Shown here: piece by piece, positions 37,466 to 49,727 of the stretch | How the letters are laid out: each line of letters begins with the position of its first letter | Position numbering within the stretch: the stretch's first letter is position 1 | From: Eledone cirrhosa | Taxonomy: Eukaryota | Assembly (NCBI GenBank): GCA_964016885.1 | Contig: OZ024742.1 | Span: 258,850,001-258,914,000, forward strand | Direction: 5' to 3' | DNA: 64,000 nucleotides | Translations under genes and position numbers: made by a program | The notes under the pieces: model-generated | Database searches by the model: none | What the model was told of the DNA's origin: nothing | What the model saw: only the letters and a program-made list of their open reading frames with translations

Positions 37466-37707
37466 ATAAAAGACGTAAAATAAGAACATTTTAAAAAAAA
37501 AATAAAAAAAAAATTAACTTGAGTGAAAATTTAAGTAAGTAAGTTAATTTAAAAAAAATTTTTTTTTTAAATTTTTTTTATTTTACGTCTTTTATATTAT
37601 TGTTCTGCATTCTCCTGCATTGAACCACCTAGGTACTATGACATAACCTGTGTATTTGCTGGCATTAGCGTATATCTGTGCGCTTATGTTAGTAGATATA
37701 TTAAATT
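37466..37707 (+). mobile_element. Family Y short copy starting at the predicted hammerhead cleavage site, with a small 5' inversion
   Basis: gagtgaaaatttaagtaagtaagttaattt...ttttacgtct...ttgttctgca...ttgaaccac matches 45272 onward and 49663 onward. Confidence 0.7.
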
Positions 37708-39269
37708 ATATATATATATATATATATATATATACATATATACATACATATATATGTATATATATGTATATATATATATATACATATATACATACATATA
37801 TATATATGTATATATATATATATATATATATATATATATATATATATATATATATATATATATATATATATATACATATATAATATACTACGCGCCCCCT
37901 GAATTTCTGAATTTTCCAACTACCAAATTCAACTAAATTGGCACTTTAATGGAAGTCAAATGCTCGAAATGCCGCGCAGTATGTGTACACAGAAGTAGGT
38001 AACTACACAAGTCAACTCCTAAACCACATAACTATGCCCATATATGTGTATGGTAAATCAATATTACTGGACAGTAAGTTTGTAGTCTCTGCTATAAAGC
38101 TTTGAATGTGTAGATACACAGTAATGTGCTCCACTAAGCGGAAGAAAGTTATGTCTGTAACATTGTATTTATGAATTGTACCACCTCGTCCATACGACTA
38201 GACAAGTAAGATACATCTGCTTAATCAGCGTTGACGTTGAACTAAATTACAAGACCAACAGCAAATATATATATATATATATATGAAACGTTGATGCTCT
38301 TTTTACCATATTCACGTGTTTTAGTCATTGGAATATTCACCAGAAGCCAAACCATAATATATTGGATTATTCACAAGAAGCACAGACATCAATGACGTAA
38401 TAGGATTGATTCTGATATTGGTATTTTGTGAATGTAAGAGCTTTATGCTGTGCCTCCAAAGGTATTGTATTTTAGATATTAGATATGTGTCGGATTCTCT
38501 GATGGACGTTCCTGTTATTCAACAAAGGCTTAGCCTGCCTTTGAAATTAATGCGCAAGGGGCTAAGCATTCTACAGGTAAGGGTGCCTTAGACATATTTC
38601 TCAGAGTGATTCATCTTGAAAAAGTGTGTGACAAAACCGTTATTCGAATTACAGATTGAGTCCATATGACGGGCTTCCAAACAGTTTCCATCTTTAAAAT
38701 TTCACTCAGAAGCCTTGGGTCAACTAAAATCTATGGCAGTGCCTTTCAAGACAGAACCTAATGAGATTCTCAACTATTTAATGTCCAACATAATGTAACA
38801 TATAGCTTTCAACCTTACGAAACAGATACGCCATAAAAAAATCTCATGAGCAATATCACAAAGTATCACCGAGATTTAAACTTATGAACTTACAATCGTG
38901 AGCAGGGGATCCCAACAACAGGCTTTCATACGTTTGTGTTCGATATTTAGCAACCATGTTTTTGCATGCGTCTCAATCGTGATCTTCGCATCTTTGTATT
39001 TATTATCTTCTACATTCCCCAATAAACATCATCTCAGAAAGTAGGATGTGATCAAGTCAGATTTCAAGGCTATTTCAACTACTTGTTTTTCAGGTCAGGC
39101 CTGTATCTACAAGATGGCTGATTCGTGTAATTTCCATTAACTGTATTCCATAAAGAAAGAAGAATAGACGAATAAACACACCTAGTTGGGAGACAAATTG
39201 CAGCCCAAATTTACATATTGTATAAGGAAAGTGAATGATATATTATGTTATATTGTTATGGGAGTTGTC

Positions 39270-39745
39270 ATTTCCTTTAGCTGTCAATGTGACTGTAGGA
39301 CAAATGGGAATTGTTAAGTTCCCTATTGATGAGTGTGATTGGAGGGCATGTTTGACATCGCACTTCCCTTGGTGGTCAGAGTAGGACATGTGAGAAATGT
39401 TATTTCCCTCAATGTTCAGTTGGGTTGTATGACATGCGGGAGATGGTATTTCCAGTAGTGGTCAGGGTTAATGAAGAACATGTAGAAAAGGGTACTTCCC
39501 TTAGTAGTCAGTGTTACATGTGGGATATGATAAATGCTTTAGTGGCCAGTGTGAGTGTATGGTACGTGGGAGATTATACTTCCTTTAGTGGTCAGTGTAG
39601 TTGTAGAACATTTGAGAGATGACGTTTCACTTAGTGGTCAGTGATACTGTAGGACACGATGAAGAATGCATTTTCATTTATGGTCAGTGTGTCTGGAGGA
39701 CATGTGGGAGATTAAACTTTACTCAGTGTTCAGTTAAATTGTAGA
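39270..39745. repeat. Diverged ~45-bp minisatellite, about 10 units
   Basis: Approximate consensus ttcccttagtggtcagtgtgactgtaggacatgtgggagatgtta. Confidence 0.8.
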
Positions 39746-39855
39746 TATTTTTCGGTTTTAACACGAGTGTCCCTCCAAAGTCACTCCGCTATTGGGGAGT
39801 CATTTTAATTTATTTTATTGTTACACATTTTGATTTTGTTTACCTTATTTCCCTT

Positions 39856-40175
39856 TTTACAAATTTACATGTAAACCCACATTGCATAACGTTGTACTCT
39901 CCTTAAAGTGCGTTGTCCTGTTTACAAATTTACATGTAAACCCACACTAAATAGCATTGTACTCACGTTAACGTATTTTGTCCTGTTTACACAATTTCAT
40001 ATAAACCCACAGTACATGTCATTGTACTTTCCTTAATGTGTTATGCCCTGTTTAAAATGTATATACAAAACCACATTGTATGGCCTTGAATCTTTCTTAA
40101 TATGCTTTGTCTTTTTTTACACATTTACATGTAATCCCACACTATATAACATTGTACCAACCTTAATCTATCTTT
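39856..40175. repeat. 65-bp minisatellite, 5 units
   Basis: Units start at 39856, 39921, 39986, 40051, 40116 (tttacaaatttacatgtaaacccac...ttgtact..cttaa). Confidence 0.88.
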
Positions 40176-46906: not shown

Positions 46907-46985
46907 ATATATACTTATATATATATATATATATATATATATATATATATATATATATATATATATATATATATATATATATATA

Positions 46986-48650
46986 CTAGCAGAGTTACCC
47001 GGCGTTGCTCGGGTATTAAATAGCAGTTGTGTATACCGTTTATCTCAATATTTCAGTGCTGCGTTGAAAGCTATACTTTTACAAAATCATCGGGTTATTC
47101 CAAAAGGGGGTTCCTGCCCCCAGCGGTCCCCCACTCAATATGTGCCAATTCTGAGAGTTCACATTCATCTGTAGAACAAATGTAGCCCATGTGTCAAGTT
47201 TTGTGAAAATCGGTTGCGAACTCCAGAAGTTATGACGTTTTGTTGCATTGCACTGCAGTGCTTCAGTCGACTCCAAGGAAGCGGTTGAAGGGGGTTATCT
47301 GCCGGGAGGCCCTATAATCAATATCTGGAAAAATGAAAGTGCCCATGAAAGTGCCCATCCGGAGTACATAAGTAGCCTATGTCTTAAGTTTGGTGAAAAT
47401 TCTGTAGAAATGCATAAGGTTTATAAATACGCGCGCGCGTGTGTGTCTGTTTGGGTGTGGGGGGATGAATTTGTGTGTGCGTATGTATGTGTATGTCCGT
47501 CGGGGCATACGTATGTACTGGCCTAAATCTTCACTATTTACTTTTACTATTTTAATAAACTCTGTCATTTTCGTTTTCAATTTTATTTACATCATTTTTA
47601 AACTCTGGGGCTGGAAATCATTCGGTTATTTTAAATAGAATATTAGTCTAACGACTCCATTTATACCATAAACTTGGTCTCGTCTTTGCATGAAATTGTT
47701 CTTGTCGGTCCACATGACGACGTATTATCCTCGCTTTTTTCCGTTCATTGCCAGGGAACGTCTTCACGAACCAAAATATCGTCTTCCTGTTTTCCTTCGG
47801 TTGCAACGGTTTTCGAAATATTTACTTTCTGAGTTCACAGATTAAATTTTTTAGTTTCAGAAGATCCCGTTAATGTTGAAAGCAGCGATTCTTTGCTTAA
47901 ACTTGAATCGGTTTTTACACGCACACACACACACACATATATATATTTTTTTGTAGATATATTTTTATGTGTATTTGGTGTATACATTCGTATGCGTGCG
48001 GGTACAGGCGTTGCCTGAGTTCTGTATGTGCGTGCGTTTTTTTTTTGTTTTTTTTTTGTGTACATGCGTGTATTTGTATACCTATGCGGAGTGTTTTCGT
48101 GTATGCTTGTCTATGTACGTATATGGATGCGTGTATGTATTTATTTAATTTAAATTACCTCTGTATTTTATTTACTTTATTCTTAACTCTGAAGCCGAGA
48201 ATCATTCGGTTTCCTAGTTAGAATTTTAGTCTACGACTTCAGCTATACCATTTACGTGGTTTTGTCTATGCGTGCAATTGTTCGCCCGGTTCCACATATG
48301 ACGTATTATCTTCGTTTTTTCCGTTCATTGCCAGAGAACGTCTCTATGAACCACCTAAGAGAACATTAGTCTACTACCTCTTTTATACCCTAAACGTGGT
48401 TTTGTCTTTGCGTGTAATTGTTTTTCACCGCTCCAAATAATGACGTATTATATTCGTTTTTTCCCGTTCTTTGCCAAGGAACTTTTCCACGAACCAAAGT
48501 ATCGTCTTCCTGTCTTCCTCCGGTTGCAACGTTTTTTGAAATATTCACTTCTGCGTTCACAGATTGACTTTGTTAGTTTTAGAAGATCCCGTTAAGGGTG
48601 AAAGCAGCGATTCTTTGCTTAAACTTTAATCTGTTTTTTAATAAATTAAT
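46986..48650 (-). mobile_element. Helitron-like element with internal tandem blocks (~47642, 48225, 48366)
   Basis: A|CTAGcagagtta cccggcgttgctcggg = minus-strand 3' hairpin + CTAG; repeated ttagtcta..gacgtattatc...ccgttcattgccag..gaacc; right boundary uncertain. Confidence 0.65.
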
Positions 48651-49148
48651 AAATATAAATATATATATATAAAGAGAGAGAGAGAGAGAGAGAGAGAGAG
48701 AGAGAGAGAGAGAGAGAGAGAGAGAGAGAGAGAGAGAGAGAGATGCTCTGTACGGCTTTTGAAGGAAGGAGTGACCAAAAGTACGTTGTTCGGTATTATT
48801 ACGAAAAGTTGTAGCAAAGAATCCCGCGTGAACTAACAGCTCGGGAGGAAAATGCTTACCTCGAAGATTCATTCGCCATCGTTCTTGTCAACGCTCGGTT
48901 TACTTGGTATTTGTTGGTCTACAGTTAGATGAAGGGCGCACAAAGGGATAATTTTTATTGGCAAGAAGTCTTTTGAATAATAAAAGACGGGTTAAAGCGT
49001 CCTACAATGTATCTGTGTGTATATATTTATATATATATATATATATATATGCATACACACACACACACACACACACACACACACACACATATATATATAT
49101 AAATATATATATATATATATATATATATATAGAGAGAGAGAGAGAGAG

Positions 49149-49727
49149 AATTAGTACATCTACCAACATATGTGTACAGATGTACACCCATGCTAGCAAA
49201 TATATATGTTATGTCTTAGCACCTTTGTGGTTCTATGCAGGGGGATGCAGAACAATTATATGAAAGACGTAAAATAAGAAAATTTTAAAAATTAAAAATC
49301 AACTTACTTACTAAAATGTTCACTCCATTTGTAGAGCAAAACTTCCCAAATTTTACTGCTGATTCAAGGTAGTAGTAGGCTCTTCTCATAATACGACCCC
49401 GCTGCTAACTGATTAACCTCAGTGTCACGTGATTGATTCTTTAGAATCTACCACTGACCAGAGGCAGTGAATTTTTTCAGTGCTCTGGAATTTAGTCCTC
49501 GCTAGCTTTATTCCATCCACTGAATTATTATTTTTATATGGGTTCCTAGTGTCCGCGCATCGCCTGGGAACTTAGCTGAGAATAGACTCCCTGATGACGT
49601 AAGGAATTCTCTATAGTTATATTACGTAACTATATTTATCCCCTTACAGAAACTAATTAGTTGGAGTGAAAATTTTAGTAAGTTTATTTTTAATTTTTAA
49701 AATGTTCTTATTTTACGTCTTTCATAT
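49149..49727. mobile_element. Family Y diverged copy: minus-strand tail segment (49149-49327) joined to a plus-strand body
   Basis: Alignable to 44377-45327; inverted tatgaaagacgtaaaataagaa / ttcttattttacgtctttcata. Confidence 0.8.
49586..49667 (+). ncRNA. Family Y hammerhead, second variant
   Basis: ACTCC-CTGATGA-cGTAAGG...CCTTACa-GAAAC TAATTA GTT-GGAGT. Confidence 0.82.

Follow-up and report, generated by a model that had tools for sequence, protein, structure and literature searches.

In the accessible parts of their descriptions (Cervera and de la Pena 2020, PMC7229834; Li, Clavereau, Pollet 2026, bioRxiv 10.64898/2026.07.22.740005), animal retrozymes that lack long terminal repeats (non-LTR retrozymes) are non-coding tandem units of low GC content with a type I hammerhead in each repeat, dispersed as monomers to multimers, with a short stem III predicted to need a dimer and with Penelope-like elements present alongside them in the genome. 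Circular templates are assumed in the retrozyme model, and the use of the Penelope machinery by retrozymes has been argued from co-occurrence and phylogeny (bioRxiv 10.64898/2026.07.22.740005). Penelope-like elements, as far as the available text goes, have an inverted 5'-truncated arm and are tailed at just one of their ends (Craig et al. 2021, bioRxiv 10.1101/2021.04.23.441226), together with two fixed 3' ends downstream of a hammerhead cut and (AT)n targets (PMC11167929; bioRxiv 10.1101/2021.04.23.441226). Their inverted copy and tail were traced to two internal start sites of the reverse transcriptase (RT), and cleavage was dispensable in the same in vitro study (PMC11167929). At stake is whether Penelope and retrozyme hammerheads cut in the course of transposition in vivo, and what form of the RNA gets copied. 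Here we analyze Family Y, a hammerhead-bearing repeat found in a 64,000-nt stretch of the Eledone cirrhosa genome (assembly GCA_964016885.1, contig OZ024742.1, positions 258,850,001 to 258,914,000; the window), whose truncated copies end at the predicted ribozyme cut more often than chance.

Judged by its sequence, Family Y belongs to the tandem non-LTR retrozymes and has a predicted, covarying type I hammerhead, and it shares with the animal retrozymes all the features listed above. It is low in GC, dispersed, non-coding and present in high copy number: an exact 17-18-nt anchor next to the cut occurs 6119 times in the 3.0-Gb genome. Its unit of 519-554 nt (51 distinct cut-to-cut units in 11 clusters, with divergence up to 28%) is longer than the 170-400 nt given in PMC7229834 and lies within the 51-972 bp given in bioRxiv 10.64898/2026.07.22.740005, and its arrays hold 3-4 tandem units with a hammerhead in each. 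No open reading frame (ORF) of at least 120 aa is made from the unit, the two ORFs touching copies traverse a microsatellite, and the ORFs for RT and GIY-YIG belong to separate nearby elements. In the hammerhead at 49586-49667, stem I pairs ACTCC with GGAGT, the core comprises CTGATGA (49591-97) and GAAA (49649-52), and stem III is the palindrome ACTAATTAGT (49652-61). When two copies are co-folded, the double hammerhead is the lowest-energy structure (-50.6 kcal/mol), while a single copy prefers another fold (-20.5 vs -18.0 kcal/mol for the hammerhead fold). The motif had no match reaching the gathering score in Rfam. The predicted ribozyme is under selection: the core, the cleavage triplet and the stems are conserved, with compensatory changes (covariation). 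Stem II is fully paired in all six variants that take in 182 of the 241 distinct Family Y hammerheads, at least four of the five stem I positions are paired in 249/261, and GTT is kept in 250/261.

For a genome-wide census of 5' ends, copies were parsed with a jumping aligner against natural Family Y units, with signed positions given relative to the predicted cut. Two patterns requiring the anchor 3' of the cut plus upstream mismatches yielded 50 and 74 matches, all of which were fetched; the 122 distinct contexts parsed gave 82 distinct inversion junction ends, with the exclusion of 3 duplicates, 12 contexts bordered by other DNA, 12 with direct jumps, 12 with internal indels and one unparsed. 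From -10 to +4 the ends number 2, 1, 3, 4, 3, 2, 6, 2, 8, 16, 12, 8, 8 and 7. Thirty six of the 82 fall at -2..+1, where 17 are expected from a simulated uniform null passed through the same filter (p 3e-6). The first-pass annotation of the window had proposed plotting the 5' endpoints of all copies, and the peak it anticipated at the H17 site is present. The excess holds across three nulls (p 2-3e-6), and without the 9 ends from the 6 junctions that have both arms at the cut it amounts to 28/73 (p 6e-4). The partner arm likewise ends at -3..+1 for 8/36 cut-site ends against 0/44 others, a figure made up of these 6 junctions, which always pass the filter and some of which were counted twice, once from either side. 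After correction for detection, the end rate is 0.56%/nt at the cut, 0.15 at -10..-3 and 0.10 in the control window C1 (107 matches, 13 of the first 30 being inversions, 4613 anchors); control C2 (159 matches, 18 of the first 30 being inversions) came without an at-risk count and so yields no rate. Stops at the cut thus make up about 1.7% of passes, and about 98% cross the site.

The anatomy of the insertions was determined from loci selected by one end. The pattern of a Family Y end in (AT)n at about +68 (E1) gave 1794 matches, of which the first 92 of 100 listed, in 90 loci, were taken; 89 distinct loci were parsed, one duplicate was dropped and 88 were counted. An inverted partner arm is present in 66/88 loci, and 59 of these 66 partners end about 110-120 nt 3' of E1, at a second fixed end, E2 (about +180). 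Because arms picked by E1 have inverted partners ending at E2, both outer ends are 3' ends; the arms sit in (AT)n, in which the window is rich, and are joined through an inversion. Family Y insertions thus have the anatomy of Penelope-like elements as read from their sequences, with an inverted 5'-truncated arm, a tail on one end and an AT-rich target, and they were likely copied into (AT)n by a Penelope-like RT. Fold-back of a single cDNA as the source of the inverted arm is ruled out for most loci, because the two arms contain different parts of the unit. Apart from the lack of an ORF, the difference from Penelope-like elements lies in the tail, about 110-120 nt in Family Y and about 70 nt in the unrelated Family X, against 30-40 nt in the accessible descriptions. 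Both fixed ends show a short TATA-like match to the target in Family Y and X loci. The fixed E1 and E2 ends are direct structural evidence of retrozymes using Penelope machinery. In the parts of PMC7229834 and bioRxiv 10.64898/2026.07.22.740005 available to us, no map was found of insertion ends, of the fixed pair of 3' ends or of cut-site 5' ends.

In the same unbiased, E1-picked set, 23 E2-arm ends fall in +1..+38, three in +39..+76 and three in the 38 nt upstream of the cut. AT content was rejected as the source of this excess, since +39..+76 is equally AT-rich. About one third of E2 arms halt within 45 nt 3' of the cut (19/54 on first arrival and 5/12 on second).

Two other hammerhead families served as replicates. 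Family X, which has the GUA triplet and the same two-ended anatomy, gave 513 matches, of which 100 were listed and 86 fetched, rows of another subfamily (11) and duplicates (3) being left out; automatic parsing called 41 inversions, and inspection by eye led to the removal of 5 flank matches and one palindromic pair and to the shift of one end from -7 to -2. Twelve of its 34 ends fall at -1/+1 vs about 4 expected (p <0.001). Family Z showed no peak, about 4 of some 40 ends being at -1 and 2 at +1 (first 100 of 265 matches, by eye), and the test of A addition in this family, whose H17 is A as in Family X, is confounded by (AT)n. A related subfamily, in rows with ATACAGATTCTC, carries the Family X 3' anchor but differs upstream of it; its copies often form inverted pairs separated by 2-5 kb, possibly the termini of a longer element.

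Table 1. Hammerhead-bearing elements and Family Y arms in the window (positions within the window)
Feature	Coordinates	Strand	Remarks
Type I hammerhead of Family Y	49586..49667	+	palindromic stem III; predicted cut 49662/49663 (GUU^GGAGU); predicted to act as dimer
Family Y arm, +1 of predicted cut (5' end at 49326) to fixed end E2	49145..49326	-	174 matches, 4 mismatches to natural unit
Partner arm, about +200 across hammerhead to fixed end E1 in (AT)n	49327..49728	+	aligner parse
Short inverted arm, about +22 to E1	37464..37520	-	aligner parse
Family Y arm, +2 (ambiguous to -8) to E2, older subfamily	37521..37706	+	aligner parse
E2 arm of third insertion, with hammerhead; 5' end near +209, away from cut	44377..44871	-	aligner parse
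E1 arm of third insertion, with hammerhead; 5' end near +128, away from cut	44874..45332	+	aligner parse
Small two-armed Family Y insertion; junction 12621/12622 near +54/+42, away from cut	12504..12642		aligner parse
E1-to-E2 tail segment alone, (AT)n at both sides	56413..56532	-	aligner parse
Family X, type I hammerhead element unrelated to Y (GUA^GAAUC), same two-armed anatomy	29088..29270		replicate test

The Family Y copies of the window are listed in Table 1. Two of them had been described in the first-pass annotation as starting within about 1 nt of the cut, running to the tail and joined to an inverted segment, and both do belong to the cut-site class, reach E2 and have an inverted arm. 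The cleaner case is the arm at 49145-49326: the A at 49327 can be assigned to either arm, so that the end is at +1 or -1. The arm at 37521 begins with GAGTG (+2), the TT before it coming from the inverted arm, and because a mismatch-tolerant alignment (AATTAACTT vs AATTAGTTG) takes it back to -8, its end may lie anywhere from -8 to +2. For the 49327 junction, no bridging piece was found among public contigs of four runs of unknown kind, which are too fragmented. Both copies had also been interpreted as cDNAs of a 3' cleavage product of about 180 nt. This part of the interpretation fails: E2 is a fixed 3' end of copies, and 180 nt is therefore the distance from the cut to this internal copy end and not the size of a product. 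The units are tandem, the sequence goes on beyond E2, and arms that start at the cut can also finish at E1 (about 60-75 nt) or be longer by one full unit. Two of the eight arm ends at inversion junctions of the window lie at the cut, those at 44871/44874 and 12621/12622 lying elsewhere; given a genome-wide share of 5/132 ends, the chance of at least 2/8 is about 3%. The pair is by itself weak evidence, and the claim is carried by the census. The copy at 56413-56532 consists of the tail only, as if the E2 cDNA had halted where the E1 cDNA begins.

We consider it fairly probable that the excess arises when the RT runs off ribozyme-cut RNA, and the excess is likely a germline record of RNA self-cutting. 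What remains of the genomic record first proposed is the peak at the cut, modest at the frequency given above. In the mechanism we propose, each target strand would prime one cDNA, at E1 and at E2, respectively; each cDNA would be extended until it falls off, and the two 3' ends would then be joined, often with microhomology or added bases. The templates would be mostly circular or uncut, and most passes would therefore go through the site. Where the RNA is linear and cut, the cDNA would halt at +1, often gaining an added base; direct joining would give the peak at -2..+1, and trimming to the nearby palindrome AAAATTTT would give the cluster at +5..+21. Run-off would account for how sharp the upstream edge is, for both arms stopping jointly and for the cluster at the nearest palindrome. 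That the entire excess 3' of the cut, about one third of arms per arrival, is due to run-off from cut RNA followed by trimming is a more doubtful extension, which we put forward tentatively; if true, cut linear retrozyme RNA would be a major template alongside circles, a dimeric Penelope RT would often make the two cDNAs from a single RNA, and junction histograms would provide a genome-only readout of germline hammerhead activity for each of the many families in such genomes.

Several observations speak against run-off. The peak is at -1 and not at +1: plain run-off predicts 0.11/0.22/0.65 for -2/-1/+1, whereas 8/16/12 ends were observed, a fit being obtained only if about half of the cDNAs gain an A, and Family Y offers no way to tell such an A from a copied U17. 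The bases kept in the 12 cut-site ends of Family X, where H17 is A, are split (7 A, 3 T and 2 G, four of the seven A's being also in the partner arm), so the step of A addition is not confirmed. Since retention of the base 5' of the cut exceeds the frequency expected under plain run-off, stalling or microhomology may contribute. E1 arms often end within stem II (12 ends at -45..-4, 0.54%/nt), hence structure does stop the RT. Control window C1 shows local peaks 2-2.5x its mean (by eye, microsatellite-flanked ends included), Family Z lacks a peak, and for an anole element no reads ended at the cut and uncleaved RNA was the main substrate (PMC11167929).

The strongest rival is that the RT stalls on intact RNA as soon as H17 has been copied, the obstacle being the folded three-way junction or else the re-ligation bond of a circle, in which case the scar would still record cleavage, but of a ligated product. 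We regard it as rather unlikely, although H17 and the base kept at -1 agree in Family Y (a T, with 16 ends vs 12 at +1) as well as in Family X (an A, with 7 vs 5), the 8:16 ratio of ends at -2 and -1 is in line with true ends at -1 (0.31:0.64), and E1 arms do halt inside stem II. However, the base of stem I (+5/+6) holds only 4 ends vs 12-13 at -1 (first 100 rows of the listing, by eye), 12 ends at +1 carry a non-matching base, both arms halt at the same point in 6 junctions, and a stall at -1 leaves the broad E2 excess at +5..+35 unexplained. Joining of cDNAs at palindromes or microhomology, without cleavage or stalling, could also pile up ends, with AAAATTTT at +7..+14, GGAG vs CTCC at about +190 and stem I as candidate sites. 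Many symmetric junctions do fall on AAAATTTT, 15 of 66 unbiased junctions are near-symmetric (3 of these far from the cut), and microhomology is possible at both window junctions. The caveat, raised from the outset, that CTCCA at 49323-49327 might explain that junction has some substance, as 3/36 cut-site partners end at +169 to +173, just past this motif. Yet microhomology of at least 2 nt is no commoner at the cut (6/36) than elsewhere (10/46), a null weighted for it still gives p ~2e-6, and a second AAAATTTT zone (+39..+76) is not enriched, so that this explanation appears improbable. Least credible of all is chance, that is, uniform 5' truncation with two copies chosen after the fact: six of the eight window arm ends lie elsewhere and ends are spread across the whole unit, but the census p values, even the conservative one, and the repetition in Family X largely refute it at the family level, while it could still account for either single copy.

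Ribozyme cuts recorded in 5' junctions are already known for R2 with its hepatitis delta virus-like ribozyme (Eickbush et al. 2013, PMC3774820); in the accessible part of that report, the junctions reflect the cut, with added bases and microhomology joins, as those of Family Y probably do, a precedent that supports run-off. There, full-length copies take their 5' end from the cut and are joined to the target, whereas the Family Y hammerhead marks a minority stop in a template that is tandem or circular, the joining partner being a second cDNA. Frangieh et al. 2024 (PMC11167929) reported no RNA ends at the cut, where Family Y DNA copies show an excess. In the mainly open literature, including PMC4209133 and PMC6765202 and supplements aside, we found no report of hammerhead retrozymes or Penelope elements recording the cut in their 5' junctions; the supplements of bioRxiv 10.64898/2026.07.22.740005 and Fig. 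S2 of PMC11167929 could bear on this. Should the peak be a record of cleavage, a test without RNA would be available, family by family, in any assembled genome in which such elements abound.

An abundant Neptune-type Penelope-like element (RT, Zn-finger linker and GIY-YIG) is present in L116 (487-2671), in L358 (1-1338) and in the window (33064-33210 and 34560-35300), with copies up to 98% identical and its own degenerate hammerhead near the 3' end. It adjoins Family Y arms at 4 loci, without enrichment of such junctions (3/70 scored edges vs 2.1 expected from the share of flanking DNA, p 0.35), and no Y-like sequence was found at its 3' end. Direct Neptune joins to Family Y or X arms with no (AT)n between were seen in L099, L141/L153, L116 and L280 and in L420 and L444; L099 and L153 look as if a single insertion had received an arm from each of the two elements. 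Retrozyme-like repeats are dense in the genome, with many other type I hammerhead families in the flanks of L001-L328 and in the window at 12287, 28879 and 29140, most of them with a palindromic stem III and the triplets GUA, AUA or GUU. Two of the four long inverted repeats of the window (11964-12368, 16493-18836, 17448-17868 and 28644-28965) bear hammerhead motifs and are probably further two-armed insertions. Also found were a broken reverse transcriptase resembling that of long interspersed nuclear elements at 23586-25510 of the window (RVT_1, E 1e-28) and, in L359 (3-1985), pol reading frames like those of LTR retrotransposons, with RT, RNase H and integrase motifs recognized by eye.

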